This document shows, in pieces, positions 7,259-40,892 of a DNA stretch of 64,000 bases. This DNA is from Gammaproteobacteria bacterium (GTDB lineage Bacteria; Pseudomonadota; Gammaproteobacteria; GRL18). Under the pieces are notes generated by a model, which was not told the DNA's origin, ran no database searches, and saw only the letters and a list, made by a program, of their open reading frames with translations. The position numbers were made by a program, and so were the translations under genes. The stretch spans positions 38,011 through 102,010 of the forward strand of contig JADGDG010000001.1 in the NCBI GenBank assembly GCA_016744995.1, written 5' to 3'. Every line of letters begins with the position of its first letter. The first letter of the stretch is position 1.

Positions 7259-7975
7259 TTATATCAATCGGCCTAATAGTACTGGAATAGCATTCTCTAC
7301 TCTGAGGATCCGTGCCCCTAAATGACAACTGACAAAACCTGCCTGTTTAAATTTATCCACTTCATAATCAATAAACCCACCTTCGGGGCCAATAGCCAGA
7401 CAAGTGTGCAGGCCAGCCTTCGCCTTTTCCTCAAAGCAAAGTTCACCCGCTCCCGGATGAGCAATAATAGCACGACTTCCAGAAATCAAGTCGGGCACAA
7501 CATCTTCGACAAAGGGTTTAAAGCGCTGATAATATTTAACTTCAGCAATACAGGTATCTTTAGCCTGCTCAAGACCCAGAATCAGATGCTGCTGCAATTT
7601 GTCCTGTTCCAGCCAGGGGCTCTGCCAATAACTTTTTTCCACTTTAGCCGAGTGAATTAAACTCAGTTTTTTCACACCCATTGCACTGATTGTCTGCAAA
7701 ATACGTTTCAGCATTTTGGGGCGGGGCAACGCCAGAATCAAGTGTACACTTAATGGTGCAACCGGTTCTTTATCAAATTGTACTTCAAGCTCCACCTGAT
7801 ATTCATCAATAAATAAAACACGCCCATACCCTAGCTGCTTATTTAATAAACCAACCTCAAGCCTGTCATTAATCGAGACTTTTTTAATTGTTCTCAGGTG
7901 CGCCAGACGCTGATCGGTGAGTCGAACTCGATTGGCAGCAATAAAGTCCGGTTCAAAAAGAAGTAATAAATTCAT
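7259..7975 (-). CDS. rsmE: 16S rRNA (uracil1498-N3)-methyltransferase RsmE
   Basis: PUA-like N-terminus plus SPOUT core (ILALPRPKMLKRILQ..GV..L, IAIGPEGGF). Confidence 0.75.
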   Translation of the reverse strand: MNLLLLFEPDFIAANRVRLTDQRLAHLRTIKKVSINDRLEVGLLNKQLGYGRVLFIDEYQVELEVQFDKEPVAPLSVHLILALPRPKMLKRILQTISAMGVKKLSLIHSAKVEKSYWQSPWLEQDKLQQHLILGLEQAKDTCIAEVKYYQRFKPFVEDVVPDLISGSRAIIAHPGAGELCFEEKAKAGLHTCLAIGPEGGFIDYEVDKFKQAGFVSCHLGARILRVENAIPVLLGRLI

Positions 7976-24730: not shown

Positions 24731-25516
24731 CTAAGCATAAATATTTTTCAGTGTTTTTCTAAAAAACTGATCAACTAGTTCATTATCCAATTTCATTTGT
24801 TTAGCAGGTAATAGCAAAGCAAGACGCTTCATTTCATCCGAGAGGAAAGTTTCAATTCCTGGATTTCTATTAACCTGATCCGTTTCATTTGAATTTTGTT
24901 TTATCCTTAATAACTCATCAATATCAGCCAGCAATTCTCCTTCCGGTAAAAAAGCACTCAGCAAATCTGAGAATAACATGGGCGGTTGGTTTCCTTTTTC
25001 AATAACCCAGCGACAACACAAGATCGGTCGCAAAGAATACAAGTATTTTTTAATGTTAACTTGTTTGCACTGAGAGATGACTTTCAAGTGTGTTTTTGCC
25101 ATAGAAAGATAATGATGACAACTGGCCAGTGGTAAAAAAGCTTCTTGAGACAAGTCTCTTATAGGTTCTATCACATCCTTAACATCCAGATATTGTATTG
25201 GTGAAGCCAGCCACTCCATTAATGCCGGATTGGATTGCTTCAGCAAAGCCAAAGCCTTTTGAATATCCCAGCCATTGATATCAAGAAGACCATCAATTGG
25301 TAATTCAATCACATCTCGTTTATTAAACACACTGAGATACCAATCAGGCTCATGACAATATAAAAAGCGAACATCATAATCACTATCCTGTGATGGAAAA
25401 CCCCAGGCCCGACTTCCAGACTCAACTGCCAGGATAATTTTAATATGATATTCAGCTTCAATTTTCTCCAATTGTTCAATAATATCTCTCTCAATTGAAT
25501 ATTTGTTTATTCTCAT
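24731..25516 (-). CDS. Pol-beta superfamily minimal nucleotidyltransferase (GS-x3-G-x5-SDxDV) with C-terminal helical domain
   Basis: GSRAWGFPSQDSDYDV catalytic motif within the first 50 aa, followed by a ~200-aa helical domain. Immediately downstream of the HNH gene. Confidence 0.45.
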   Translation of the reverse strand: MRINKYSIERDIIEQLEKIEAEYHIKIILAVESGSRAWGFPSQDSDYDVRFLYCHEPDWYLSVFNKRDVIELPIDGLLDINGWDIQKALALLKQSNPALMEWLASPIQYLDVKDVIEPIRDLSQEAFLPLASCHHYLSMAKTHLKVISQCKQVNIKKYLYSLRPILCCRWVIEKGNQPPMLFSDLLSAFLPEGELLADIDELLRIKQNSNETDQVNRNPGIETFLSDEMKRLALLLPAKQMKLDNELVDQFFRKTLKNIYA

Positions 25517-25569
25517 TTTTCTCTACTCTGATAGAGCCATATTAAATTCATGGCTCAGATGTTTTTTAT

Positions 25570-26136
25570 TTACAATAACAGACTGCCTTTAGGAAATCTG
25601 TCTTGTAAAAATTTTTGTTGTTCAGCAACAATCCTTCGAGTATTTTTCAAATACAAAAACTCTGACCAGTTGGGTACAAAAGGAACTGCTAATAATAAAT
25701 GCCCCCACTCTTCCGGAGTTCGATTGCTCTTGTCATGATTGCAGGTACAGCAACTGGTTGCGCTGTTTAACCATGAGTCATTTCCTCCCCGGCTTTTAGG
25801 GATAATATGATCACGAGTCAAGTTTCGTGGTGAAAAGGTTTCACCACAATAGAGACACATATGTCCATCTCTTGCAAAAAGCCCTCTATTTGAAAATGGC
25901 GGCACGTACTCTTTTGATAAGCGATTGGGCATCACTCTTTCTTTGGTTAATACGATTGAACTGACGGTAACTTGTGAACGCAGGCCAGACATTCGGTTAT
26001 GACCACCTCGAAACATAAATTCTTCTTCACCCAAATTGGCAATTACCCGTTCACTGGCCATAAGGGTGATGGCTTGCCGGTAGTTCAACCAGGCTGAAGG
26101 ATTTCCAGCGATGTCTAATTGTAAGATTGGGATCAT
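25570..26136 (-). CDS. HNH endonuclease with N-terminal uncharacterised domain
   Basis: HNH core CLYCGE...RDHIIPKSRGG..SWLN...CCTCNHDKSNR. Confidence 0.6.
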   Translation of the reverse strand: MIPILQLDIAGNPSAWLNYRQAITLMASERVIANLGEEEFMFRGGHNRMSGLRSQVTVSSIVLTKERVMPNRLSKEYVPPFSNRGLFARDGHMCLYCGETFSPRNLTRDHIIPKSRGGNDSWLNSATSCCTCNHDKSNRTPEEWGHLLLAVPFVPNWSEFLYLKNTRRIVAEQQKFLQDRFPKGSLLL

Positions 26137-26180
26137 TGTTAATCCTCCCTGTTTTAGTCAATTTAGGTTTACATTTAATA

Positions 26181-26266
26181 TGGTAGGCAAGGTCAGATTC
26201 GAACTGACAAACCCTTTCGGGAAAATGGTTCTAAGCCATTCGCGTTTTCCATTTCGCCACTTGCCC
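26181..26266 (-). tRNA. tRNA-Leu (anticodon TAG), class II
   Basis: Manual fold gives a 7-bp acceptor, 3-bp D-stem, anticodon loop CTTAGAA, long variable arm, T-loop TTCGAAT and encoded CCA. Confidence 0.8.
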
Positions 26267-26273
26267 TTGAGTA

Positions 26274-26348
26274 TGGCTGCCGTGCCTGGGTACGATCCAG
26301 GAATAATGGAGTCAAAGTCCATTGTGCTGCCAATTACACCACACGGCA
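26274..26348 (-). tRNA. tRNA-Gln (anticodon TTG)
   Basis: Manual fold gives acceptor TGCCGTG/CACGGCA, anticodon loop CTTTGAC and CCA. The T-loop reads ATCGTAC (A54/T58 swap). Confidence 0.7.
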
Positions 26349-26389
26349 ATTGTTTGGTGTACATTAACGTTCTTTTTATTAGTTAATCT

Positions 26390-26465
26390 TGGGGTGAGTA
26401 ATCGGGTTCGAACCGATATCATCTGGATTCACAGTCCAGAGCTTTACCATTAAGCTATACTCACC
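26390..26465 (-). tRNA. tRNA-His (anticodon GTG) with G-1
   Basis: Extra 5' G pairing with C73. Anticodon loop CTGTGAA. T-loop TTCGAAC. CCA encoded. Confidence 0.85.
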
Positions 26466-26473
26466 ATAATTCT

Positions 26474-26641
26474 TTATATGCGTTGTGCATGAAATATGGC
26501 TGTCAAAATTTGTGGGTGATCACGATTGGGTGCCACGCCTTGACGTAAAAACCAGAGTGCATTCGGCTGACTTGCTGTTTTCCGGTTTTCAGGTATTTTC
26601 ATATCTTTGACTACTTTTTCAAATTTTTCATAGTGATTCAT
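26474..26641 (-). CDS. Hypothetical 55-aa protein nested between tRNA-His and tRNA-Lys
   Basis: ATG preceded by GGAGGT RBS at optimal spacing. Not in the supplied ORF track (<60 aa). No homology recognised. Confidence 0.3.
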   Translation of the reverse strand: MNHYEKFEKVVKDMKIPENRKTASQPNALWFLRQGVAPNRDHPQILTAIFHAQRI

Positions 26642-26662
26642 AATTAATACCTCCTTTTTAAT

Positions 26663-26738
26663 TGGTGCGTCGCCCCGGCTACGATCCGGGAACTTACTGG
26701 TTAAAAGCCAGTTACTCTGCCAGTTGAGTTAGCGACAC
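26663..26738 (-). tRNA. tRNA-Lys (anticodon TTT)
   Basis: Clean cloverleaf with anticodon loop CTTTTAA and CCA. The T-loop reads ATCGTAG (A54/T58 swap, as in tRNA-Gln). Confidence 0.7.
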
Positions 26739-26739
26739 A

Positions 26740-26825
26740 TGGCTCCAGGACTCAGATTCGAACTGAGATAGGGAATTGCTCCCTCCGGTTAACAGCCGGG
26801 TGCCTTGCCAATCGGCCATCCTGGA
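26740..26825 (-). tRNA. Atypical class-II (long variable arm) tRNA with Asn anticodon GTT
   Basis: 86 nt. U1-A72 and G73 as in tRNA-Asn. Anticodon loop CTGTTAA is identical to E. coli tRNA-Asn. It has a 3-bp D-stem and a 13-nt variable stem-loop typical of Ser/Leu/Tyr-class tRNAs. T-loop TTCGAAT. CCA encoded. Confidence 0.55.
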
Positions 26826-27299
26826 ATTTTTTTAAGCTTTTTGTGGTACTTGCAAAGTTGATATTTGCTTGTTAAGCCTCAATGCTTTAAAAGCAAGGAA
26901 ACAACCCCCTCAGTCCCCCTTCTAAAGAAGGGGGAAGCTAAGAGCAATTTTTCAAGTGCCTCTTTTAATTTAAATAAGACCTGAGATTATAGTCTTAAGC
27001 GAAAATTCTTTAGCCAGATTATGAACAGGTTCCACCCTATTGCTTCCCAACGTATCCACTGATACCCACAAATGGCTTATCAGTTAATTTTCATGACCGC
27101 CTTTTTAAGCTGGTGGCAATCCCAGCATACATAACAATACTCAGCACTTCGTTTTACCGTCTGAGCCGATCAAAGCTCATCTGTGTAACTTAGTACCAGA
27201 AACATCAGCTTGGGGCTTCTGTTTCACCTAAGTTCAGAGAACTGCTCAGGTTTAGGTCATTTTCTTGTTACGCTGAAGTACGTCTTTCCTTTTATTAAG

Positions 27300-27374
27300 T
27301 GGTTTTGTAAGGATGACTCGAACATCCAACCGATTGATTATAAATCAACTGCTCTACCATTGAGCTATTACAAC
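27300..27374 (-). tRNA. tRNA-like gene, anticodon TAT, G1xA72 mismatch (possible tRNA-Ile(UAU) or decayed CAT-family tRNA)
   Basis: Full 75-nt cloverleaf with encoded ACCA. D-arm and anticodon loop resemble the CAT-anticodon tRNA-like gene at 32982-33054 except for C34>T. Confidence 0.4.
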
Positions 27375-27890
27375 AATCTGCCAAGACGTGCGTACTTCGG
27401 TTGTTTTGAAACCTTTTGAGTCACAAAATGCAACACGCCTTATACCTTTCACATTCCTGCTACTAAGTGGCTTTTCAGGATGCCGGTTTTTATCCTTTAC
27501 CCTTCAAACTTCATTAGCGCCCTTGTCTGACGTCTCGGACTGACTAATGTACCCTTCATTCTTCATAGTGCAGTCAGTTGGCTCATGGCGATCACTGCCA
27601 GATGATCCTTCGGTGGTACTGTTTGCAGCCCCTCACCTTATAAACCATGCCGACCTTTTCTATTATCTCCAGGAGACCTGAAGACAAAGAGAACTGGGCT
27701 TGCGTAAACCGACCAGAGCAATATCACTAACCACTCTGGTGAGGGCATGCAGACATTCCCTCTTTTTTACTGTCACCAGTAATTATCGTTACCGATCTCA
27801 CGCAACCGGCTACTTTCCTGCAAGCAGGAAATTGTAAATAAGTTCTAAATTATTAAAGAGCCTGGGCATAACCTTGAGACACTTTTTTCA

Positions 27891-28007
27891 GGCAAAAAAA
27901 ACCCGGATGCCTGGTCAGCACATCCGGGGTTTTACAAATTTGTAATCACTCGGAAGGTGCTTTTTTGCAACCTTCCAGGACTTTTTGAAAGGTTATATTA
28001 TGTTGGA
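27891..28007. repeat. ~115-bp conserved element, copy A (direct repeat of 33243-33357)
   Basis: Shares GGCAAAAAAAACCCGGATGC...GGAAGGTGC-loop-GCAACCTTCC...TTTTTGAAAGGTTA with copy B in the same orientation. Confidence 0.6.
27894..27934. terminator. Bidirectional rho-independent terminator hairpin
   Basis: A8-CCCGGATG-loop-CATCCGGG-GTTTT. Perfect 8-bp GC-rich stem flanked by A- and T-runs. Confidence 0.5.
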
Positions 28008-28415
28008 TGGCTCATGAGAGTCAAACCTGGCTGACAAGGCTTACCTTGTCCAAACATTTTCTCTACTAATAAATGACACAACAATAGATTGGAAACTCTA
28101 TTGGTATTCATTTCATTTTGTATTGTACTTGTCTGATATTTCATAATTCTTTAAGTTTTGTGTTCTATTAAAAGTTTTTAAAAATATGATTTTAAATAAT
28201 GTATTCTGTAATATTTATTGCGTTGATGTTTTTGTATTCTAAACACCTGATTTTTAATGTCAACACTTTTTAGCATTATTCTTGCCATTAACAGCAAGAT
28301 TCTTTCTCTTCTATTTAATATATAGTGCAATCCTTACAAACAATAATTATGTTTATTTATAAAAACTGCACTAATGCAAACACAGAATGACTTTTCATTC
28401 AAATAAATGAGCCCA

Positions 28416-29612
28416 TCATCCCTTAACGCAAATGACTTGTCGCAGTGTATGTACCACTTCAACTAAGTCACTTTGATGTTCCATTACCTCATCAATATCT
28501 TTATAGGCGCCTGGAATTTCATCAATAACTCCCTTGTCTTTACGACACTCAACACCTTCTGTTTGTGCCTCCATATCACTTTCATTAAAATGTCGTTTTG
28601 CCTTACCACGACTCATGCGTCGACCAGCACCATGTGAACAGGAGCAGAATGATTCAGGGTTACCTTTACCACGAACAATATAGGACTTATCCCCCATACT
28701 ACCAGGAATGATCCCAAGTTTATCCTCACCGGCATCTATCGCTCCTTTACGAGTCAGATAAACTTCTTCACCAAAGTGGTTTTCCAGTGACACATAATTG
28801 TGGTGGCAATTAATCACTTCTTTGGTCACACCAAATTTACGCAGTTTCTTTCTCAGGGCATCAATAATCAAACGCATCATTTCACGTCGATTATTTAATG
28901 CATAATCCTGAGCCCAACTCACTGCTTCAATATAATGCTCAAAATGCTCAGCACCCTCACTAAAATAAGCAAGATCCTTATCAGGCAGATCCTGAATATG
29001 TCTGCCCATGTCTTTTTGTGCCAGGCGGATAAAATATTGACCAATGACATTACCCACACCACGACTACCAGAATGAAGCATTACCCAGACATCATCATTT
29101 TCATCGATACAAAGCTCAATAAAATGATTACCACCCCCAAGTGTGCCTAATTGGCGAACCCAGGTTTGGTAAGGCTTTTTTTGCATCTTTAATAATTTCG
29201 GATGCTTGCCTATAAGGCTGTCCAGCCCAACAGACAATGCTCGAATTGTCGATGCTCTGGCCTTGTCTGTCTTATGCATATTAAATCCCACTGGAATGGC
29301 ATCCTCAATGGTAAATCGTATGGCCCGTAAATTATCAGGCAAATCATTCGCCTTGATCGACAGGCGTAAAGCATTCATCCCACAGCCAATATCAACCCCG
29401 ACCGCAGCAGGTATAATTGCTTTGTGACAAGGAATTACTGAGCCCACAGTTGCCCCTTTACCATAATGTACATCTGGCATTGCTGCCACATGGTGATGAA
29501 TAAAAGGCAGTTGTGAAATATTCAGTAACTGCTGATAGGCTTCGTGTTCAATATCATCCGTGAAGATTTTTACTGGCACTTTGCCTTTTGTAATTTGTTT
29601 CTTAATTGGCAT
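28416..29612 (-). CDS. rtcB: RNA-splicing ligase RtcB
   Basis: RtcB metal-binding motifs (DVHYGKG, VGVDIGCGMN, HNYV, SHGAGRRMSRG). Confidence 0.8.
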   Translation of the reverse strand: MPIKKQITKGKVPVKIFTDDIEHEAYQQLLNISQLPFIHHHVAAMPDVHYGKGATVGSVIPCHKAIIPAAVGVDIGCGMNALRLSIKANDLPDNLRAIRFTIEDAIPVGFNMHKTDKARASTIRALSVGLDSLIGKHPKLLKMQKKPYQTWVRQLGTLGGGNHFIELCIDENDDVWVMLHSGSRGVGNVIGQYFIRLAQKDMGRHIQDLPDKDLAYFSEGAEHFEHYIEAVSWAQDYALNNRREMMRLIIDALRKKLRKFGVTKEVINCHHNYVSLENHFGEEVYLTRKGAIDAGEDKLGIIPGSMGDKSYIVRGKGNPESFCSCSHGAGRRMSRGKAKRHFNESDMEAQTEGVECRKDKGVIDEIPGAYKDIDEVMEHQSDLVEVVHTLRQVICVKG

Positions 29613-29622
29613 AATTTTTTAC

Positions 29623-29880
29623 CTATTCTCTATAATAAGAATGACGCTCAACGCCATCATATCGCCTGGTCTGTAGACAACAATTCTTGAAATCTGCGAC
29701 CAGAACCACAAACACAGGGGTCATTCCTACCCAGTTTTTCACAGAGTTCTTTGTTTCCATGTATTATTCTTGTGCCACGTTTGACCCTTGTTTCAGAGGG
29801 GTATCCTTTGCGGCGTTTACTGGTTATCTCAAAAGGAATATTCCTGATTGATTAAGTTATATTTACTCATGATGCACCTC
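29623..29880 (-). pseudogene. Frameshifted SEC-C zinc-ribbon motif ORF remnant
   Basis: One frame encodes ...[14 protein letters not shown]. The +1 frame continues [14 protein letters not shown] single extra A splits the CxCGSGxxFKNCC SEC-C motif. No start codon for the first frame. Confidence 0.3.
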
Positions 29881-29908
29881 CTGGTGATAGTATTTTCATT
29901 TATATTTT

Positions 29909-31366
29909 CTATGCATATCTGGCGATAGAAAATCCTTGTTTTCTGGCCCAGCGATAAATCACTTCCATTTCAATATCGCTGGCAAAACGATTTCGTAAAC
30001 CGCGTATCTGACAAATAGTTCTACTCAGTGTATGCAATTCAATAGTCAGTAATTTTTGCCTCATTTGAGCCTTATTTGCATAGAGACAATTCTGTAATTC
30101 CATTGTCCATATCGATGTCTTACCCGTAAAACAGGAGCGGGCATAAGATGCAACACAATGGCTCTGTTTTCGCCCTTCAGCAATCAATTCATTACTACTC
30201 AGTAATTCACTGATTGTCCATATTTTCATATTACAATTATTTTCACGGCCTTCTACATAATTATAATCAGCAAACTCAGATTTAACCCACTGTAAATCAC
30301 CACCTCGTAATTCCTTTCCCAATTGTCGATGCCAGATTTCAACCTGCTTCAATAAAGTGTCTGCTGTGCGCCCACGCATAGTGAAATTAGGTTGTGCAGG
30401 ACCTTCTTCTCTGGCAACTCCACGCTCAATAAACACCATACGATTTTCATATTTCTGATCCCATATATAATCCACAATAGGATTATATTGACTGACATCC
30501 AGCATTGGATTGTCAATAAAAAATCGCATCACACTTAAGTTAAATTCATTGTCAGTAAAGACTCGTGCCAACTGAGTTCCAGATACCCCGTCAGCTATTA
30601 TTTTATTTCCACCCAGAGCATGGATCTGTGCCCAACAAAAAGCGGCATTGATCTCATAATGTGCAGGTGCCTGAATAAAATAATGTGCCATTTTCTTAGT
30701 CATTCTGATTGGCAATGAATAAGCGGTACGGATATTTTTTCCCTCTCCAATATGGATATACCATTTCTGAGCATTTACATCGTCTTTATACCAGACTGAA
30801 TCCATAAAAGCAGGCACCTTATATTGGGCGAATAAATAACGTGCCAGAGCCGAAAACTGCCGGGCTGCGTTACGTGTTCCTGGCTGCCACTCCATAACCG
30901 GACGAATCCACCAGGTATAATATTTCACAAAACTAATGATCCCTTTCACATAATCTGTATGAGTGAGCAGCTTTGTATGTTCATCAAGATATAAAAAAAC
31001 ATCTCGTAACAATGATTTATTTTGTGTTGTTTTAAAACCATGACTGATTAGTTTTAAAACATCATTATTCAAATCTTTATATCGAATTTCATTTGCATAG
31101 ATTTTTTGTATCAGGTAATGTTTATTCTCTTCACGCTTATACTGTTTCATTCTTTGTAAGGCAAAGACTTGTTTATAACGTTGCAGTTCATGTTCCAGCT
31201 GAATCTGAGTTTTATTGATATTAGTACTAAAGCCTTGCTGCATACACCATTGCTGATATGCCTCTATGGTATGTAAATTTAAGGCACGAGCATAAGTCAG
31301 TATCGTGGTATTACGATCCTGCTTTTTTTTATTTAATTTATTTTTACGTGCCATTTTCTTTTCCAT
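29909..31366 (-). CDS. PcfJ-like domain protein (485 aa)
   Basis: C-terminal region with HCVASY..C..GKTSIW motif resembling PcfJ-like proteins of conjugative/mobile elements. Lys-rich N-terminus. Confidence 0.4.
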   Translation of the reverse strand: MEKKMARKNKLNKKKQDRNTTILTYARALNLHTIEAYQQWCMQQGFSTNINKTQIQLEHELQRYKQVFALQRMKQYKREENKHYLIQKIYANEIRYKDLNNDVLKLISHGFKTTQNKSLLRDVFLYLDEHTKLLTHTDYVKGIISFVKYYTWWIRPVMEWQPGTRNAARQFSALARYLFAQYKVPAFMDSVWYKDDVNAQKWYIHIGEGKNIRTAYSLPIRMTKKMAHYFIQAPAHYEINAAFCWAQIHALGGNKIIADGVSGTQLARVFTDNEFNLSVMRFFIDNPMLDVSQYNPIVDYIWDQKYENRMVFIERGVAREEGPAQPNFTMRGRTADTLLKQVEIWHRQLGKELRGGDLQWVKSEFADYNYVEGRENNCNMKIWTISELLSSNELIAEGRKQSHCVASYARSCFTGKTSIWTMELQNCLYANKAQMRQKLLTIELHTLSRTICQIRGLRNRFASDIEMEVIYRWARKQGFSIARYA

Positions 31367-31423
31367 TAATTAATTCAGGTCTAAATATTTTTAAACCTGA
31401 ATTAATCCCTATACATCAATTTA

Positions 31424-32578
31424 TTAATCCGCATTCACTTTGATTCGGACTGTATCTTTTAGAATACCTTCCAAACCACCGAATACAGTTAATTTGTCAA
31501 TTTTTTCAGTGACTTTTTCCAGAACTTCCAATTCTTTCAAACGCATCAAAGTCGGGTTGTCATCCATCAAACGTGCAGTGTTCAACAGAGAACGTGTTGC
31601 CGCTGTTTCTTCACGTCGTTTGATCACGTTGGCCTGTGCTACTTTTTCTGCCGCCACTACCTGGTTCAATATATCTTTCATTTCACCGGGTAGAATGACA
31701 TCTTTCACACCGACACTTCGCACTTCAATTCCAAACTGTGTAATTTTTTTATGTACTAATTCAAAAATTACTGCATCCATTTCATTCTTGCTTCCTAACA
31801 AAGAATCTAAAGTACGTACACCCACAACCTGACGCAAAGCAAACTGGAGCTCACGGTAAATATAGTCTGTGATATTCAGCAACTTGCTTCGAGCAGTTAC
31901 TGGCTCAGTGATCTGGTAATGTGCAGACAAGTTAATACGCAAGCTGACTTTATCTTTAGTCAGGATCTCCTGACCTTGAACTTCCATCACTTGCAAACGT
32001 AATTCAACCTGTTCAACTTTCACTGTACGGTTAAACTTCCAGTAAGCATGTATTCCAGGTTTTAACTGTTGTACTAACTTACCATTAACAATTAACAGTC
32101 CGATATGATCATCAGATACTTCACAGGCATATACTGAATTAACCACTTCACGTGACATTGAAGTCATACGAGCATTGCTAATCAAACCAACCAGTTTTTC
32201 AGGTATGGTAAAATCCTGCTCAATATCCAGCACTTCAATTTTCACATCAACTGGATCTTTCCAGTACAGTTTTCGAGTACCAGGGGATAGAACACCGCTT
32301 AACTGACCATTTTTATAAACCAGTCCCACCTTGTGCTCACCCAAATCGATAAACTGAAAATACTTATCCACTAATTCTCGGTTTTCTTTTACCAGCACAT
32401 CTAAGTACGGGTAATTAAATTCCGGCACTGTCAAGTCATGAACCTCAATCATCACTCGATTTAATAAATTGAATTGATGATAGATGCCCGGTTCAAGGAT
32501 CTTGGCAATGCTGCGATCTTTTATGTACACACCACGTTCATGTTGTGCAATCACAATACGTTTCAATCCGAACATCAT
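31424..32578 (-). CDS. SPFH/band-7 (stomatin/prohibitin-like, slipin) family protein
   Basis: Central SPFH core (VDVKIEVLDI...AVIFELV...GIEVRSVGVKDVILPGE) and coiled-coil C-terminus. No NfeD partner adjacent. Confidence 0.7.
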   Translation of the reverse strand: MMFGLKRIVIAQHERGVYIKDRSIAKILEPGIYHQFNLLNRVMIEVHDLTVPEFNYPYLDVLVKENRELVDKYFQFIDLGEHKVGLVYKNGQLSGVLSPGTRKLYWKDPVDVKIEVLDIEQDFTIPEKLVGLISNARMTSMSREVVNSVYACEVSDDHIGLLIVNGKLVQQLKPGIHAYWKFNRTVKVEQVELRLQVMEVQGQEILTKDKVSLRINLSAHYQITEPVTARSKLLNITDYIYRELQFALRQVVGVRTLDSLLGSKNEMDAVIFELVHKKITQFGIEVRSVGVKDVILPGEMKDILNQVVAAEKVAQANVIKRREETAATRSLLNTARLMDDNPTLMRLKELEVLEKVTEKIDKLTVFGGLEGILKDTVRIKVNAD

Positions 32579-32945: not shown

Positions 32946-32981
32946 CCAATCACAGCCATTATTTTATCAATAGGAGCTGTT

Positions 32982-33054
32982 GAGAAAGAGTGGGAGTTGA
33001 ACCCACGCCAGACCAATTATGAGTTGGTTGCTCTACCCACTGAGCTATCTTCCA
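32982..33054 (-). tRNA. tRNA-like gene, anticodon CAT (Met/Ile2 family), U1xU72 mismatch, no encoded CCA
   Basis: Good D-arm, anticodon arm (ACCAA-CTCATAA-TTGGT) and T-arm (GTGGG-TTCAACT-CCCAC). The acceptor stem is unpaired at 1:72. Confidence 0.4.
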
Positions 33055-33242
33055 CTAGGCAATTGACTATTTACGGTTTTGTATACACCTTGCAATTTCA
33101 GCCTCAGTGCACAGGTCAGGCATACTGAGCCTGAACCGCTAAACCAATAAATATTTTCAAGTGCTTCTGAATTGCATGTCCTTAATTCAAGAAATAAAAC
33201 ACACAATCGCAATTCTTATTACTTACTTCTAATTAAAAAAAA

Positions 33243-34370: not shown

Positions 34371-35279
34371 TTACCGGCTAATTATATTCAGTATTTCTTC
34401 CAATTTTCTAACCGCTTCTGTTCCCTCATCAGCACTAGCTGATACACAACCATCAAGCGAACCATAATGGTGCTCAAGGCAATTCAATAGCAGCTGCCTG
34501 ATAGCGCGTTCATTCGGTTTTTGTTGTAACAAGCTGGTCAGATAAAGTTCTTCTAAATGCTTCTCTTTGTTATTGAAGAATTCTCTTAACTGAATTTTAG
34601 TCCATTCACCCCGACGAATTGATTTGAGCTGTTCACGATTTCTTGTTAAATCCAGATCACCTTCATTCAGGATCATTTCCACTTCAGAAATTAATCGGAC
34701 AACATGATAGGCAAACTTTGTTGAATAACCATGCTTATCATAATCAGCTCTTCGTTCAGTTCCTTCCTGCGGCACTGAATGTTCTGCTTTATGCAATTGT
34801 GCATAGCTATAACCTTTGAATTTATGCCATGCACCTTTATGTAAAAATAGTTTTCGATTTTCTCTGACCAGCTCTCCAACCTGAGTGGAATATAAAATGC
34901 AACGCCTGGGTACAAAAAGTGAATCAATCATGTTGGGATTGTTTTCCATACACAATTGAAAATATTTGACGATGGAATAAATTGTAAAATCATATTCCTG
35001 TGCTTTTTTCCCTGATGAGGATGTATCAAAAACATGATGCTGCTGATATTGTTCAAATCGTTTAGCCTGAGTACCAAAGCCAACAATTTCTCCTCTCGTA
35101 TGTGGAAAAACATCTTCTCGATTTGGAATACAAAAGCCATAAACATCCATATCAGAGCTATCATTAGAAACACCATAGGCCACCGAGCCCATCACAACTT
35201 CCATTTGAATGGCATTGGCTAGAAATTTAGGTGGTTTAATGAGTTTTTTCTTAACTAATTGTTGTATTGTGCTACTCAA
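34371..35279 (-). CDS. Pol-beta superfamily minimal nucleotidyltransferase, paralog of the 24731-25516 gene
   Basis: MGSVAYGVSNDSSDMDV (GS-x3-G-x5-SDxDV) near the N-terminus plus a C-terminal helical domain. Same architecture as the other NTase. Confidence 0.45.
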   Translation of the reverse strand: MSSTIQQLVKKKLIKPPKFLANAIQMEVVMGSVAYGVSNDSSDMDVYGFCIPNREDVFPHTRGEIVGFGTQAKRFEQYQQHHVFDTSSSGKKAQEYDFTIYSIVKYFQLCMENNPNMIDSLFVPRRCILYSTQVGELVRENRKLFLHKGAWHKFKGYSYAQLHKAEHSVPQEGTERRADYDKHGYSTKFAYHVVRLISEVEMILNEGDLDLTRNREQLKSIRRGEWTKIQLREFFNNKEKHLEELYLTSLLQQKPNERAIRQLLLNCLEHHYGSLDGCVSASADEGTEAVRKLEEILNIISR

Positions 35280-35499: not shown

Positions 35500-36186
35500 T
35501 TAATTTTCATACCATTGCATCGGTTCTGGCAATTTCATTGCTGAATACTCAAGGTGAATGATCCTGCGATGCTTTGGTTCTATTGCTTTTCTTGATGAGT
35601 GAAAAAGTAAAGGATTCATAAGAAGAATATCACCTGGGTTTGCATTGCAGTTAATTATTTCTGAATTTTCTACAATGTCCATTAATTTGCCTGATTTTAC
35701 TCTGCCATCACTATGAGAACCAGAGACAACTCTAAGAACACCATTTTTCTCATTTGTAGGATCAAGATGTATTCTCAGGGTTAAAATTGATGCAAGATAT
35801 TTTTCTGGTGGCTCTACATGAGGCACGCCTTGTTTTTCTCTCCATTTGTTAAAACCCGGCATTTTTATTTTTTCTTTAACAACTATTGAAGTATCCTGAT
35901 GCCAGGCGACATTCCAGTTTGCTTCTGGAACTTTATCAAAAAAAACTGAGCGAATTGGTTTTGCCTGCTCACCCAGAACCTCTTTTGCTATCTGTAGAAG
36001 CAGTAATGACATCGCTAAATTTTTTACATATGGCACTTTATCCATTAAGTTACGAATGCCGTAATTATTGATTTCGTTATTAAATACACTCATTTCTTTA
36101 ATTAACGAAGCAACTTCATTTTCACTAAGGGCATTCTGAATTAAATGGTATCCATTTTGTTCATATTGTAAATTCATCAGCAGCAT
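35500..36186 (-). CDS. PhyH-family Fe(II)/2-oxoglutarate dioxygenase
   Basis: WHQD..., HxD...H facial-triad spacing and a C-terminal RxS motif typical of phytanoyl-CoA dioxygenase-like proteins. Confidence 0.55.
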   Translation of the reverse strand: MLLMNLQYEQNGYHLIQNALSENEVASLIKEMSVFNNEINNYGIRNLMDKVPYVKNLAMSLLLLQIAKEVLGEQAKPIRSVFFDKVPEANWNVAWHQDTSIVVKEKIKMPGFNKWREKQGVPHVEPPEKYLASILTLRIHLDPTNEKNGVLRVVSGSHSDGRVKSGKLMDIVENSEIINCNANPGDILLMNPLLFHSSRKAIEPKHRRIIHLEYSAMKLPEPMQWYEN

Positions 36187-36419: not shown

Positions 36420-37100
36420 TTACTCAATGGTGCTTATTTTGGATACTGAAATAATCTCTGAGCCATCCCAGATGTATTCGTAATGACAGCCCTGGTCAAT
36501 TTTATCGATGTATTTTGGCGTGAACAAAGCGTAGCAGTTAGCATAGTTGTTTCTTACTGAACCGTACCAGATGCCTGAAGAACTTTCTTCTTTAACTTTT
36601 GCACCTAATTGTTGAGCGGCTGTATAGTCATCTGTATCATACCACCCACGGTCATCAATTAATGGGTCGGCGATATTAATCAGTTCTGCTGAAAAGGTGG
36701 TGCATAAAGTTCGCATGACAATTCTTTCATACTTAAAGCCCTCTACATTTTTTAAGTATTTTTCCTGATGGTATACCGTTTCAGTGATAGCCGTTTCTAT
36801 ATTTTCAGCAGCATAATAGATGCCATACCTACCATCAGAAAAGCGCGAGCCTTCTGAGCTGATGTGTGTGAAAGGTGCTATTGCCCAGTTACATCCGGGG
36901 ATATCAAAGGGTATTTCTTTAGCAGGCAACAGATTTAAGTTGCCTGCTTCATTTTGAACCCTGGGGTTAGTCATTGCCTGTATTTCATAGAGGGCCTCAA
37001 ATTCATCGGCATCAGCAACATCATCAAAGAGAGCAATGGGCGGAAATTTACTATTGATTAAGCGGTAACATACTTGCTTAGCAAATGTTGTTGTTACCAT
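36420..37100 (-). CDS. RES-domain toxin (MbcT/RES NAD+ phosphorylase family)
   Basis: R...E...S catalytic arrangement (GSRFSDGRYGIYYAAENIETAITE). Overlaps the upstream Xre-like antitoxin by 7 nt. Confidence 0.7.
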   Translation of the reverse strand: MVTTTFAKQVCYRLINSKFPPIALFDDVADADEFEALYEIQAMTNPRVQNEAGNLNLLPAKEIPFDIPGCNWAIAPFTHISSEGSRFSDGRYGIYYAAENIETAITETVYHQEKYLKNVEGFKYERIVMRTLCTTFSAELINIADPLIDDRGWYDTDDYTAAQQLGAKVKEESSSGIWYGSVRNNYANCYALFTPKYIDKIDQGCHYEYIWDGSEIISVSKISTIE

Positions 37101-37498
37101 TGACCGCCTCTTAAAGCAGTGATCTGATTATTGACTTCGTAAAGATTCGCAACACTTCCACTAGTCATTATATCCATTGGCGTTGCACCATTAAAGAAAT
37201 AGTTTGAATTAGGCATGCGAACAAAGCCATAGACATTATCTTTATTATCAAAAAGAATTCTTAGTGATGAATGAATGTTGAGCAAGTAACTGACTCTTTC
37301 CAGTAAGTCATGTGAGACTCTGGCTGAATAGGGATCACTTTGATATTTATGCAGCGTAGAACGACCTATCCCCAATAGAGCCATTTTCTCTTGTTCACTA
37401 CATTCCCACTTATCAAGAATATTCAAGGCTGTTTTTAATGCAATTTGCCTCTTATCTTTAGATTGATTGTTTGCTTGAGTTCTATTTTGTGTAGTCAT
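37094..37498 (-). CDS. Xre-like antitoxin (MbcA/ParS, DUF2384) of RES toxin
   Basis: C-terminal toxin-binding domain similarity. Positioned upstream of the RES gene in typical TA arrangement. Confidence 0.65.
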   Translation of the reverse strand: MTTQNRTQANNQSKDKRQIALKTALNILDKWECSEQEKMALLGIGRSTLHKYQSDPYSARVSHDLLERVSYLLNIHSSLRILFDNKDNVYGFVRMPNSNYFFNGATPMDIMTSGSVANLYEVNNQITALRGGQW

Positions 37499-37697: not shown

Positions 37698-38774
37698 ATG
37701 AACGAAAATCATAAACTGCCTGGAATTAAAAAAAATATATTAGAAGAAGCAATAGAAGCCGTTTATCAACAAACAGGTTTAAGACTTATCCTGCCTGATA
37801 ACAATGTAATTGAAGAATCTCACGATGAGATAACTATAATGATTGAGGGAAATTTTCACCTTCATTTTACAGCTAAGGTAAAACGATGGGCACAACAGGC
37901 TAATTTCGGAGCACTAGTTAATGAGATCCAGCAACTATCGACGAAAGGTATACTGGCTGCCGATTATGTAAATCCAAGAATGGCAGATAAGCTTCGTAAA
38001 CTAGACATACCTTTTATAGATACTGCTGGTAATGTATTTATCAATGAAAAACCAACCTATCTTTTTGTTAAAGGCATTAAAAACACCCACAAAACAGAGA
38101 TAAGCAATCAACCCAAAGAAACACAAACTCATGGCAGAGCATTCATGCCATCAGGGCTAAAAGTTGTTTATGCATTCATACAATCGCCCAAATTAATCGA
38201 TGCACCTTATAGAGAAATTGCAAATATTTCAGGTGTTGCACTAGGTACTGTTGGCTGGGTTATTAATGATCTGAAACTGGGGGGCTATTTAGTCGCATTT
38301 GATGAAAAAAAACGGAGATTAACAAACAAAAAACATCTATTAAATAAATGGGTTGATGCCTATTTAGAAAAATTACGCCCAAAATTGTTTTTAGGTAACT
38401 TTAGTGCTGAGGATGATAGTTGGTGGATGAAACTGGATAAAAATATAGTGGATTATGGTACGTTGTGGGGAGGGGAAATTGCAGCATCTAAACTCACAGG
38501 ATATATCAAACCAGAAAAAGTTATTCTTTATCGACCCAAAGAAGGCAATAATAAATTATTTGCCGATAATCGTTTCCGAAAAGATCCAAATGGGAATATT
38601 CAAGTATTTCAAGCTTTCTGGGACATAGATGAAAAACATATTTTAAATTCAAGTGGTCTTGTTGAACCATTAATTGTCTATGCCGATCTCCTGGCAACAG
38701 GTGATAGCAGGAATTTAGAAACAGCAAGGGTACTATATGATAAAGAACTCACTGGATTTATCCAGGAAGATTGA
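37698..38774 (+). CDS. AbiEi-like wHTH protein (putative antitoxin/regulator partner of downstream NTase)
   Basis: Internal winged-HTH-like segment (YREIANISGVALGTVGWVINDLKLGGYLV). 38-nt overlap with the downstream NTase gene. Confidence 0.3.
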   Translation: MNENHKLPGIKKNILEEAIEAVYQQTGLRLILPDNNVIEESHDEITIMIEGNFHLHFTAKVKRWAQQANFGALVNEIQQLSTKGILAADYVNPRMADKLRKLDIPFIDTAGNVFINEKPTYLFVKGIKNTHKTEISNQPKETQTHGRAFMPSGLKVVYAFIQSPKLIDAPYREIANISGVALGTVGWVINDLKLGGYLVAFDEKKRRLTNKKHLLNKWVDAYLEKLRPKLFLGNFSAEDDSWWMKLDKNIVDYGTLWGGEIAASKLTGYIKPEKVILYRPKEGNNKLFADNRFRKDPNGNIQVFQAFWDIDEKHILNSSGLVEPLIVYADLLATGDSRNLETARVLYDKELTGFIQED

Positions 38775-39588
38775 TTCTGTAACAATAAAATTATTCTGCC
38801 TCATAGATCAAGTAGCAAAAAGTCTGAATGTTTCATACGTTGTCATCGGTGCAACTGCAAGAGATATAGTGCTTCATTGTGGGTATGGTGCTGAGATCAG
38901 AAAAGCCACCACTGATATTGATTTTGGCATACAGGCTAATAGTTGGGAGGGATTTAAAGAATTAAAAATCAAATTATTGGAAATAGGTTTTCAACCCACA
39001 AAGGTGGGACACCGATTGACTTCACCTATAGGTCTCGCTGTTGATCTTGTTCCTTTTGGAGCAATTGAAGATACAAGTTCAAATATTCAGTGGCCACCTA
39101 ATGGTGATTTTGAAATGAATATGCTTGGTTTTCAAGAAGCACATGATCATGCAATAAAAGTTATCATTCAGGAAAGGCCATTTATAGAGATTTCTGTAGC
39201 AACATCACAGGGTCTGGTCCTACTCAAATTAATTGCATGGTCAGATCGTGTGAGAGATCTAAGAAAAAAAGATGCCCTGGATTTGGTTTATCTGCTTGAA
39301 ACATATGAAAGAGTTGATGGTATTGTCGATCAACTCTATGAAGAAGACGGCTTAATGGAACAATACGACTGGGATATTAAATTTGCGAGTGCACATCGTC
39401 TCGGTATTGATTCAGCTTTAATCTCACAAGAAGCAACAAAAAAACAAATCTACAAAATTTTAGAAAATAACTTAAATACTGATAAGCAAAATATTCTAGT
39501 TGAAGAAATGTGTGGTCAAAATGAAAAAGATGATTATGAGAAAAATTTTAGCTTACTAAAGGCATTTGCTGCGGGATTTAGAAAATAA
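38737..39588 (+). CDS. AbiEii/DUF1814-like nucleotidyltransferase (putative type IV TA toxin)
   Basis: IGATARD...x20...TTDIDFG resembles the GGTA...SEDIDL catalytic motifs of AbiEii-family NTases. Confidence 0.4.
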   Translation: MIKNSLDLSRKIDSVTIKLFCLIDQVAKSLNVSYVVIGATARDIVLHCGYGAEIRKATTDIDFGIQANSWEGFKELKIKLLEIGFQPTKVGHRLTSPIGLAVDLVPFGAIEDTSSNIQWPPNGDFEMNMLGFQEAHDHAIKVIIQERPFIEISVATSQGLVLLKLIAWSDRVRDLRKKDALDLVYLLETYERVDGIVDQLYEEDGLMEQYDWDIKFASAHRLGIDSALISQEATKKQIYKILENNLNTDKQNILVEEMCGQNEKDDYEKNFSLLKAFAAGFRK

Positions 39589-40815: not shown

Positions 40816-40892
40816 TGGTGGGCCTGGACAGACTCGAACTGTCGACCTGCCGATTATGAGTCGGATGCTCTAACCAACTGAGCTACAGGCCC
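40816..40892 (-). tRNA. tRNA with CAT anticodon, most likely tRNA-Ile2 (lysidine) rather than elongator Met
   Basis: Clean 77-nt cloverleaf with CCA. C4-G69 and C5-G68 in the acceptor stem match TilS identity elements. Confidence 0.8.

Follow-up and report, generated by a model that had tools for sequence, protein, structure and literature searches.

A tRNA-Asn gene with a long variable arm

The window analysed here is a stretch of 64,000 nucleotides (nt) from a gammaproteobacterial genome assembly (GCA_016744995.1, contig JADGDG010000001.1), and this study concerns one transfer RNA (tRNA) gene on its minus strand, which combines the asparagine anticodon GUU with a long variable arm. ARAGORN reported this gene as tRNA-Asn(gtt), 86 nt, on the minus strand at 26740..26825, with the anticodon from position 33, and the Rfam tRNA model RF00005 matched it in full length over 26743..26825 with 50.4 bits (E 3e-9), above the gathering threshold of 29 bits for that model. 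The full sequence is UCCAGGA-UG-GCC-GAUUGGCAA-GGC-A-CCCGG-CUGUUAA-CCGGA-GGGAGCAAUUCCCUAU-CUCAG-UUCGAAU-CUGAG-UCCUGGA-G-CCA, and the parts lie as follows (bp, base pairs).

26740..26825, minus strand: tRNA(GUU) of 86 nt with long variable arm, encoded CCA at 26740..26742 and discriminator G73 at 26743 (ARAGORN, Rfam, RNAfold)
26819..26825, minus strand: 5′ strand of the acceptor stem, UCCAGGA, pairing with 26744..26750, with U1-A72, C2-G71 and C3-G70 (sequence)
26802..26816, minus strand: D-arm GCC-GAUUGGCAA-GGC, a 15-nt arm with a 3-bp stem plus G13.A22 (sequence, Rfam)
26784..26800, minus strand: anticodon arm CCCGG-CUGUUAA-CCGGA, with GUU at 26791..26793 and a C27.A43 mismatch (ARAGORN, Rfam)
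26768..26783, minus strand: variable region GGGA-GCAAU-UCCC-UAU, 16 nt, with a 4-bp hairpin and 3 unpaired 3′ bases (sequence, RNAfold)
26751..26767, minus strand: T-arm CUCAG-UUCGAAU-CUGAG (sequence, Rfam)

This anatomy agrees with a first-pass annotation of the window, which had reported an 86-nt tRNA with anticodon GUU at this place, an acceptor stem TCCAGGA/TCCTGGA with U1-A72, G73 and an encoded CCA, a 3-bp D-stem GCC-GATTGGCAA-GGC, an anticodon loop CTGTTAA, a variable arm GGGA-GCAAT-TCCC and a T-arm CTCAG-TTCGAAT-CTGAG. All of these are present, the D-stem being extended by G13.A22 and the variable arm followed by TAT. Two details were missing from that description, the C27.A43 mismatch and a pyrimidine at position 15, which leads to an unusual 15-48 pair. 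In the Rfam alignment C27.A43 was the sole flagged non-standard pair, and the variable region appeared as a 13-nt insertion. The minimum free energy structure given by RNAfold was a cloverleaf with a hairpin in the variable region (-32.3 kcal/mol), with a z-score of -1.58 that is not significant alone, and both Rfam and RNAfold placed 7 bp in the acceptor stem and 5 bp in the T-stem (7/5). Elements used in translation were kept, namely U8, A14, G18G19, U33, A37, the T-loop UUCGAAU and the encoded CCA.

Textbook bacterial class II tRNAs are those for Leu, Ser, Tyr and Sec. Canonical class I tRNAs have a variable loop of 4-5 nt, and the 16-nt hairpin region of the window tRNA lies outside that range.

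Distribution of long-arm tRNA-Asn genes

The first-pass annotation had presented this tRNA as a singular oddity, a view that did not survive comparison with other genomes, as the gene belongs to a large family of phages and mobile elements. Viral contigs were searched with a pattern in which the T-loop must follow the anticodon arm after a long spacer (GGCTGTTAACC-N17-30-GTTCRANTC). The viral counts given here rest on at least 120 loci per pattern, and the figures apply among the matches listed. The long pattern was found in at least 120 viral loci, in which ARAGORN recognised at least 122 tRNA(GUU) genes of at least 80 nt, at least 107 of them distinct. When a spacer of any length was allowed, 10 of 120 viral loci were long; thus, about 8% (roughly 1 in 12) of the phage tRNA-Asn genes matching the anticodon-arm pattern carry the long arm. 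Loci with long-arm genes contained a median of 10 tRNAs, compared to 3 in short-arm loci, and were more often on contigs of at least 200 kb (14 of 80 against 2 of 74 of those displayed, p = 0.003). Long and short Asn genes were found together in 33 of 118 loci.

In cellular genomes, represented by one genome for each of 185,579 species, the long pattern gave 118 matches. About one third of these were rejected as family members because they were archaeal tRNA-Asn genes with an intron; in these false positives, from Thermoplasmata, Pyrobaculum and Thaumarchaeota (e.g. L133, L139, L159, L200, L215 and L245), the intron follows the anticodon loop. Most of the remaining matches were contigs of metagenome-assembled genomes (MAGs) with 7-40 tRNAs within 8 kb. 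Two cultured phages also carry long-arm genes, 86 nt in Sinorhizobium phage Phosso and 88 nt in Mesorhizobium phage Cp1R7A-A1, both annotated as plain tRNA-Asn. In Cp1R7A-A1 an 88-nt tRNA-Lys (L125 197..284) adjoins the 88-nt tRNA-Asn. Two tRNA-Asn genes from bacterial MAGs (L205 4451..4542 and L221 6321..6410; 90-92 nt according to ARAGORN) contain a tandemly duplicated T-arm segment, with GGTTCGAATCCAG occurring twice, which may be an assembly artefact or another way in which a tRNA-Asn becomes over-long.

By global alignment, the top-scoring relatives of the window tRNA were other long Asn tRNAs, and it shares the features of the family: U1-A72, G73, GUU, a variable-region hairpin of 3-5 bp followed by about 3-4 unpaired bases, and a place in a multi-tRNA array of a mobile element. 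A recent origin of the long Asn genes by duplication of Ser, Tyr or short Asn genes within the locus was considered and found no support, as no neighbour reached 70% identity; the sole exception within a locus was a pair of long Asn copies in L037 which matched each other. The literature searched, whose coverage was incomplete so that an earlier notice is possible, held no description of a long-arm tRNA-Asn. Long-arm tRNA-Asn forms a widespread family of phages and mobile elements, one that is apparently undescribed.

Covariation and conservation of the arm

Among 105 well-parsed distinct viral long sequences, 67 had U1-A72, all of them with G73 (67 of 67), and 36 had G1-C72. The window tRNA is of the U1-A72 type, which is the main group. 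The variable region of this group spans 11-23 nt, in the usual order of 1 unpaired base, a stem of 3-4 bp, a tetraloop and a further 3-4 bases without partners. Of the variable regions of the family, 94% could fold into a hairpin with 3 bp or more, compared to 37% of shuffled sequences; GNRA loops were present in 47 of 67, and the 5′ stem strands were of 42 different sequences.

A covariance model (R1) was built from seven members, with the window tRNA among the seed sequences and scoring 89.8 bits, and the 150 top matches were aligned (alignment A3); this alignment was fitted to the model and therefore leans toward structure. All 4 pairs of the variable-arm helix had changed on both sides in A3, and 85% of the cells were paired, much as in the D helix, while the acceptor helix was 99% paired with all 7 pairs covarying. 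The whole structure was far above shuffled and slid controls. The standard 13-22 pair was present in 37 of 67 long Asn tRNAs and in 30 of 34 short ones, so that 45% of the long and 12% of the short form lack it. Because this pair is often absent in the long form, the core shifts toward a class II layout together with the arm.

Two other assemblies allowed the window gene itself to be followed. In L356 (GCA_053999595.1), the same island is found at the same chromosomal site, with an Asn tRNA identical to that of the window. L173, from another gammaproteobacterial MAG, holds a different version of the island with an 86-nt tRNA(GUU) right after a GOLLD RNA, as in the window. Between the window and L173, C12-G23 of the D-stem is replaced by U12-A23, a compensatory change, C27.A43 of the anticodon stem is replaced by G27.U43, one acceptor base is changed, and the loop of the variable arm goes from GCAAU to UACCU, with the variable stem GGGA/UCCC and the trailing UAU kept. 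These compensatory changes around an unchanged variable stem suggest that the Asn tRNA is under selection for its fold, extra arm included.

A decaying pseudogene, i.e. a tRNA-Asn broken by a small insertion, would explain the C27.A43 mismatch and an Rfam score (50.4 bits) that is modest beside those of the neighbouring tRNAs. It would not account for the compensatory changes in L173, for the more than 100 distinct members that keep a covarying hairpin at the same site, or for the comparison with L356, where the Asn tRNA is identical while the tRNA embedded in the GOLLD RNA differs at 2 positions, the wobble base (A34, giving anticodon AAU) and one T-loop base. We strongly disfavour this explanation as extremely unlikely, and we hold with high confidence that the window tRNA is a real gene under selection.

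Geometry of the arm and the boundary between tRNA classes

The geometry of variable arms was compared by isotype within the same phage loci, again among the matches listed, with the following result.

tRNA-Ser: unpaired 3′ bases mostly 0-1, stem 4-7 bp
tRNA-Leu: unpaired 3′ bases mostly 2, stem 3-4 bp
tRNA-Tyr: unpaired 3′ bases mostly 3, stem 3-4 bp
Long tRNA-Asn (U1-A72): unpaired 3′ bases 3-4, stem 3-4 bp

Phage Ser tRNAs with 0-1 unpaired 3′ bases numbered 59 among the 73 whose arm was folded. The arm of the window tRNA is Tyr-like and not Ser-like, because its 4-bp stem and 3 unpaired 3′ bases match the pattern of phage tRNA-Tyr. The first-pass annotation had called the tRNA a chimera of Asn and Ser types. 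The mosaic part of that description was borne out, as the acceptor end and anticodon are Asn-like and the D-arm and variable arm are class-II-like, and a view of it as a unique Ser/Asn recoding chimera was largely not. In a nearest-neighbour comparison that excluded the anticodon arm and the variable region, the acceptor and T-arm body of the U1-A72 group was closest to phage Gln tRNAs and to short (class I) Asn tRNAs, and the D-arm was closest to Ser, Leu and Tyr tRNAs; the term mosaic is apt because these neighbours differ.

The boundary between class I and class II was blurred both ways in the phage arrays (viral loci L004-L123). About 60% of the tRNA-Leu genes in these arrays keep the long arm, and 72 other class I tRNAs in the same loci carry an arm similar to that of the long Asn tRNAs, including Met, Ile, Lys, Thr(UGU), Cys, His and others. 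Read from the per-sequence listing, the discriminators of these armed class I tRNAs were A in Lys, Met and Ile, U in Thr and Cys, and C in His, which appear typical of their own isotypes. The armed share of other class I tRNAs was about 7% in loci with long Asn genes, compared to about 2% in control loci (p = 8e-6). Since the 72 armed class I tRNAs appear to keep the discriminators of their own isotypes, the data fit a picture in which the arm would be an add-on that leaves identity intact.

Identity elements and predicted charging

In bacteria, Asn identity can be transplanted by the anticodon together with G73, and U1-A72 specifies amidation of Asp-tRNA-Asn by GatCAB (PMC9976931). Bacterial tRNA-Ser conserves G1-C72 and G2-C71, with C2-G71 acting as an antideterminant for the E. 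coli seryl-tRNA synthetase (SerRS), and G73 is an antideterminant for the leucyl- and tyrosyl-tRNA synthetases (LeuRS and TyrRS), both of which require A73 (PMC9976931). The window tRNA has G34, U35 and U36, G73 and U1-A72, the Asn elements. It shares G73 with tRNA-Ser, and the Ser elements G1-C72 and G2-C71 and the Ser arm geometry are absent; its G73 stands in place of the A73 of tRNA-Tyr and tRNA-Leu. Each class II identity set thus has at least one element that is missing or negative. On the published identity rules, and because all the Asn elements are present, we infer with moderate confidence that the window tRNA is charged with Asn and reads AAC/AAU.

The explanation that we favour as a whole, with a confidence somewhat above even, is that of a functional, horizontally acquired Asn tRNA whose shape sets it apart from the tRNA-Asn of the host. 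Such a tRNA would decode AAC/AAU after being charged by one of two routes, either directly by asparaginyl-tRNA synthetase (AsnRS) through the GUU anticodon and G73, or by a non-discriminating aspartyl-tRNA synthetase (AspRS) followed by GatCAB, which needs U1-A72. A short hairpin would have been added in the variable region, with the D-stem often cut to 3 bp, placing a class-II-like body on an Asn identity set. The window tRNA would then serve as a replacement Asn decoder, distinct in shape from the host tRNA-Asn, and tRNA-targeting nucleases could accept the altered shape less readily, with synthetase and ribosome still able to use it.

Several points weigh against this explanation. Class IIb synthetases such as AsnRS reach the tRNA from the side of its variable loop, as in the AspRS-tRNA complex, and a long arm could hinder AsnRS. 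The window copy has the C27.A43 mismatch and the pyrimidine at position 15. Scored with isotype profiles that were made from phage tRNAs with the anticodon masked, and that had a held-out accuracy of 74%, the window tRNA obtained, over its full sequence, 17.6 for Cys, 16.3 for Ser, 15.7 for Lys and 15.5 for Asn, against a mean of 44 for true Asn tRNAs; its scores with the phage class I Asn profile ranged over 15.5-22.8. As for nucleases, PADLOC on ten island proteins gave AbiEii and a weak RmrA match and no known tRNA-targeting nuclease, and the case for nuclease evasion consists of context and analogy only. Finally, SerRS in several systems has a long arm and G73 as its two strongest determinants (PMC9976931). 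With the same masked profiles, the best match of the L173 tRNA was Asn (22.2), with Tyr at 11.9; the Leu profile gave no match for either the window or the L173 tRNA, and the Tyr profile gave none for the window tRNA.

Charging by SerRS, suggested by the first-pass annotation on the strength of the arm, would make the tRNA a device of deliberate mistranslation or recoding by the mobile element, through Ser or dual Ser/Asn charging. Support for it comes from G73 as a strong SerRS determinant (PMC9976931), from C11-G24 in the window tRNA, and from a viral tRNA(GUU) subgroup with G1-C72 and a Ser-type D-arm (GCCGAGUGGUUUAAGGC), about 7 of which have a Ser-type arm, so that Ser-like bodies with GUU do exist. 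The window tRNA itself, however, has U1-A72 and the antideterminant C2-G71 where tRNA-Ser conserves G1-C72 and G2-C71, and its 4-bp arm with 3 unpaired 3′ bases is Tyr-like, phage Ser arms having 4-7 bp and 0-1 such bases. Its 15-nt D-arm is without the extended D-loop common in Ser tRNAs, its Ser profile score of 16.3 falls below the mean of 35.8 for true Ser tRNAs, and the discriminators of the other armed isotypes appear to be those usual for each isotype. Ser or dual charging of the window tRNA is thus distinctly improbable. Examples of the G1-C72 group with Ser-type bodies are L024 5534..5622, L005 4718..4803 and L060 3928..4014, and about 7 genes of this group combine a Ser-type arm (5-7 bp, 0-1 unpaired 3′ bases) with G73; judging by these elements, this group might hold better candidates than the window tRNA for a dual Ser/Asn identity.

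The island and its conservation

The Asn tRNA had been described as the last gene of its tRNA cluster, which is reversed here: in the direction of transcription it opens a run of five contiguous tRNAs that lies downstream of a GOLLD RNA. The neighbouring features are listed below.

26663..26738, minus strand: tRNA-Lys(UUU), beginning 1 nt after the CCA of the Asn tRNA (ARAGORN, Rfam)
26390..26464, minus strand: tRNA-His(GUG) (ARAGORN, Rfam)
26274..26348, minus strand: tRNA-Gln(UUG) (ARAGORN, Rfam)
26181..26266, minus strand: tRNA-Leu(UAG) (ARAGORN, Rfam)
26978..27441, minus strand: conserved part of GOLLD RNA, directly upstream of the array (Rfam RF02032, 154 bits, E 1e-42)
27300..27374, minus strand: tRNA-Ile(UAU), embedded in the GOLLD variable region (Rfam)
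28416..29612, minus strand: RtcB RNA ligase (Pfam PF01139, E 1e-130; PHROG tRNA splicing ligase)
25570..26136, minus strand: HNH endonuclease at the downstream end of the array (Pfam HNH_5/HNH; PHROG HNH endonuclease)
24731..25516, minus strand: RlaP-family nucleotidyltransferase, RNA-repair-associated (Pfam PF10127, E 2e-85)
34371..35279: second RlaP paralogue
35500..36186: PhyH-family dioxygenase
36420..37498, minus strand: RES-Xre toxin-antitoxin pair
37698..39588, plus strand: AbiEi/AbiEii toxin-antitoxin pair
32981..33055, minus strand: divergent tRNA-Met(CAU) inside the island

After GOLLD, the array runs Asn, Lys(UUU), His, Gln(UUG), Leu(UAG), a six-tRNA cluster if the Ile(UAU) gene inside GOLLD is counted, and tRNA-Asn and tRNA-Lys(UUU) are probably co-transcribed because only 1 nt separates them. 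The order of the island on the minus strand is SPFH protein, PcfJ-like protein, RtcB, GOLLD RNA, tRNA array, HNH and RlaP. Chromosomal genes form its borders, with rsgA and the his and tat genes on one side and tRNA-Met, rpoD, dnaG and tsaD on the other, so that the window is part of a bacterial chromosome, assembled from a metagenome. The non-essential region of rpoD suggests a proteobacterium, and the closest relatives carry the label Gammaproteobacteria. No phage structural genes and no integrase were seen in the island, which is of the mobile-element type rather than an intact prophage. The tRNA-Met at 32981..33055 and the chromosomal tRNA-Met at 40816..40892 were considered as duplicates of an attachment site and rejected, as they are clearly different genes.

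A terminator-like hairpin with a T-rich tail lies at 26905..26930 on the minus strand, between the 3′ end of GOLLD and the Asn tRNA, and a promoter scan between this hairpin and the Asn tRNA gave no strong promoter-like site. Promoter-like sites were found upstream of the GOLLD Rfam match at 28263..28236 and 28024..27997 (minus strand), and their positions suggest that the GOLLD transcript starts well upstream of that match.

The module in L173 comprises RlaP (77% identity), HNH, the array, GOLLD (143.8 bits), RtcB and the PcfJ-like protein, with a sixth open reading frame at the position of the SPFH gene of the window. The tRNA embedded in its GOLLD is Arg(CCU). A unit of RlaP, HNH, tRNA array, GOLLD, RtcB, PcfJ-like and SPFH genes (24731..32578 in the window, minus strand) is common to three gammaproteobacterial assemblies, in two of which it lies beside rsgA at the same chromosomal site. 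This conserved unit links GOLLD with RNA-repair enzymes. RlaP alone is no marker of such tRNA arrays, since the more distant RlaP homologues in L358, L359 and L361 have no nearby tRNAs.

The exact sub-lineage is known so far from the window, L001/L002, L356/L357 and L173 only. A megablast of 25000..29000 against cultured phages gave no match, the exact string of variable arm and anticodon gave none in viral contigs, and the RlaP protein had no confirmed relatives in viral contigs. Two sub-lineage patterns searched in JGI metagenomes, and one in viral contigs, returned 0 matches.

The position of the gene directly downstream of GOLLD, at 152 nt in the window and 28 nt in L173, is the main support for a non-translational role, in which the tRNA-like RNA would act as a decoy or sponge for a nuclease or synthetase, as cargo or partner of a GOLLD nanocage, or as a regulatory RNA. 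Phage tRNAs have been suggested as contents of GOLLD cages (PMC12286853), and the anticodon-stem mismatch of the window copy points the same way. Against this, all translation elements are conserved from U8 through the encoded CCA, and neither GOLLD nor ROOL was found in the 13 viral loci whose long Asn tRNAs are the most similar (0 of 13), which argues that the family is independent of GOLLD; an association with GOLLD or ROOL as a trait of the family was rejected on the same count. We give a non-translational role a very small probability.

Possible purposes of the arm

If the tRNA is a functional Asn decoder, as we favour, its arm may still have no part in defence. It could compensate for a weak core, with its 3-bp D-stem and odd 15-48 pair, or could serve as a handle for processing or modification in fast-evolving polycistronic arrays. 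The more frequent loss of the standard 13-22 pair in long-arm Asn tRNAs (present in 37 of 67, compared to 30 of 34 short ones) fits a compensating role, and stable GNRA hairpins are typical stabilising and docking modules. Phage arrays also blur the classes both ways (about 60% of Leu genes keep the arm, about 7% of other class I genes gain it), and the next tRNA starts only 1 nt beyond the Asn tRNA. A role in structure or processing alone leaves unexplained the strong preference for Asn among class I isotypes, the coexistence of long and short Asn genes in 33 of 118 listed loci, and the enrichment in contigs of at least 200 kb with large arrays (14 of 80 compared to 2 of 74), although none of these is decisive. 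We regard it as a serious alternative, albeit a rather unlikely one.

Evasion of nucleases is the purpose that would set the favoured explanation apart from a structural one, and it is the weakest step, held by us with low to moderate confidence on analogy with known phage tRNAs. RtcB and RlaP adjoin the array, which supplies the context. The PARIS nuclease AriB is documented to target tRNA-Asn(GUU) and tRNA-Lys(UUU), and infection is rescued by the variants of these two tRNAs from phage T5, which neutralise PARIS (PMC12409363); that phage tRNAs escape nucleases by sequence change is an established idea (PMC10264068). A hairpin beside positions 39-43 could plausibly hinder tRNA nucleases. Weak hints in the same direction are the coexistence of long and short Asn genes noted above (33 of 118 loci), the occurrence of long forms of tRNA-Thr in UGU only (5 of 40 compared to 0 of 37, p = 0.055, among the matches listed), and an approximately 2-fold enrichment of ANN-reading isotypes among neo-class II tRNAs, i.e. 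class I tRNAs with such an arm (p = 0.004).

A broader version of this idea, which we put forward as possible though doubtful, is that class I tRNAs have been converted time and again, by phages and mobile elements, to armoured, neo-class II forms by means of a short GNRA-capped hairpin beside the anticodon stem, which would keep cognate charging and decoding and block host defence nucleases, and possibly modification enzymes. Under this tentative scheme Asn would be affected most, and Lys, Thr(UGU), Met, Ile, Cys and His less; the window tRNA would be an armoured Asn decoder used together with RtcB/RlaP and GOLLD, and the Ser-bodied GUU subgroup might add Asn/Ser ambiguity.

Relation to known tRNAs

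The window tRNA resembles canonical bacterial tRNA-Asn in its CUGUUAA loop with GUU, G73, U1-A72, C2-G71, C3-G70, 7/5 stack and standard T-loop, and differs from it by the 16-nt hairpin variable region, where the canonical form has 4-5 nt, and by the 3-bp D-stem with G13.A22. The long arm and 3-bp D-stem are shared with bacterial class II tRNAs, the arm geometry being nearest to phage tRNA-Tyr. With tRNA-Tyr it also has G34 and U35 in common, unlike that tRNA having G73 instead of A73 and U36 instead of A36. It is likewise set apart from tRNA-Leu by G73 in place of A73, and from tRNA-Ser by U1-A72/C2-G71 in place of G1-C72/G2-C71 and by an arm that is shorter and differently linked.

The closest known case in concept is that of the nematode nev-tRNAs, which combine a class II body with a class I anticodon, Gly or Ile (PMC3333845, PMC4300185). 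Unlike the window tRNA, these occur in eukaryotes, are built on a tRNA-Leu body and accept Leu in vitro; no conflict of identity is predicted for the window tRNA, because its acceptor end and anticodon both agree with Asn. The first-pass annotation had compared the gene to recoding allo-tRNAs, which are likewise found in metagenomes and phages and have a long variable arm, with anticodons not bound to their Ser or Ala identity (PMC5389517). That comparison fails on the layout of the acceptor and T-stems, which is 8/4 or 9/3 in allo-tRNAs and 7/5 here (PMC5389517).

Like the tRNA-Lys, tRNA-Thr and tRNA-Asn of phage T5 in relation to PARIS AriB (PMC12409363), and like anticodon-loop variants (PMC10264068), the window tRNA is a mobile-element copy of a nuclease-targeted isoacceptor, diverged from that of the host and placed beside other targeted isoacceptors. 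The known escape variants are point substitutions in the anticodon stem-loop, whereas the window tRNA has a whole extra arm and its escape is putative. The GOLLD/HNH tRNA arrays of Mycobacterium (PMC6582537) are similar in having a GOLLD with an embedded tRNA, an HNH gene, a tRNA-Ile(UAU) and array tRNAs structurally unlike the chromosomal ones; they differ in that a Leu tRNA with a short variable loop, and no long-arm Asn, was noted there. In comparison, the window array is small (5+1 genes), gammaproteobacterial and joined to RtcB and RlaP.

A considerable fraction of phage tRNA-Asn genes thus carries a conserved, covarying long arm with the Asn identity set kept, as is likewise the case for other class I isotypes, and the window tRNA itself is an ordinary member of the family and no unique recoding device. 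If the arm protects against tRNA nucleases, it would represent a new mode of phage counter-defence, acting by structure rather than by point mutation; this idea is directly testable because the cultured phages Phosso and Cp1R7A-A1 carry long-arm genes. As for annotation, callers that rely on the anticodon give long-arm genes the plain label tRNA-Asn, and isotype models may mark them as mismatched. Apart from the Asn family, a viral array of about 40 tRNAs (L083) contained at 7415..7497 a tRNA that scored above the Rfam tRNA-Sec threshold (53 bits).

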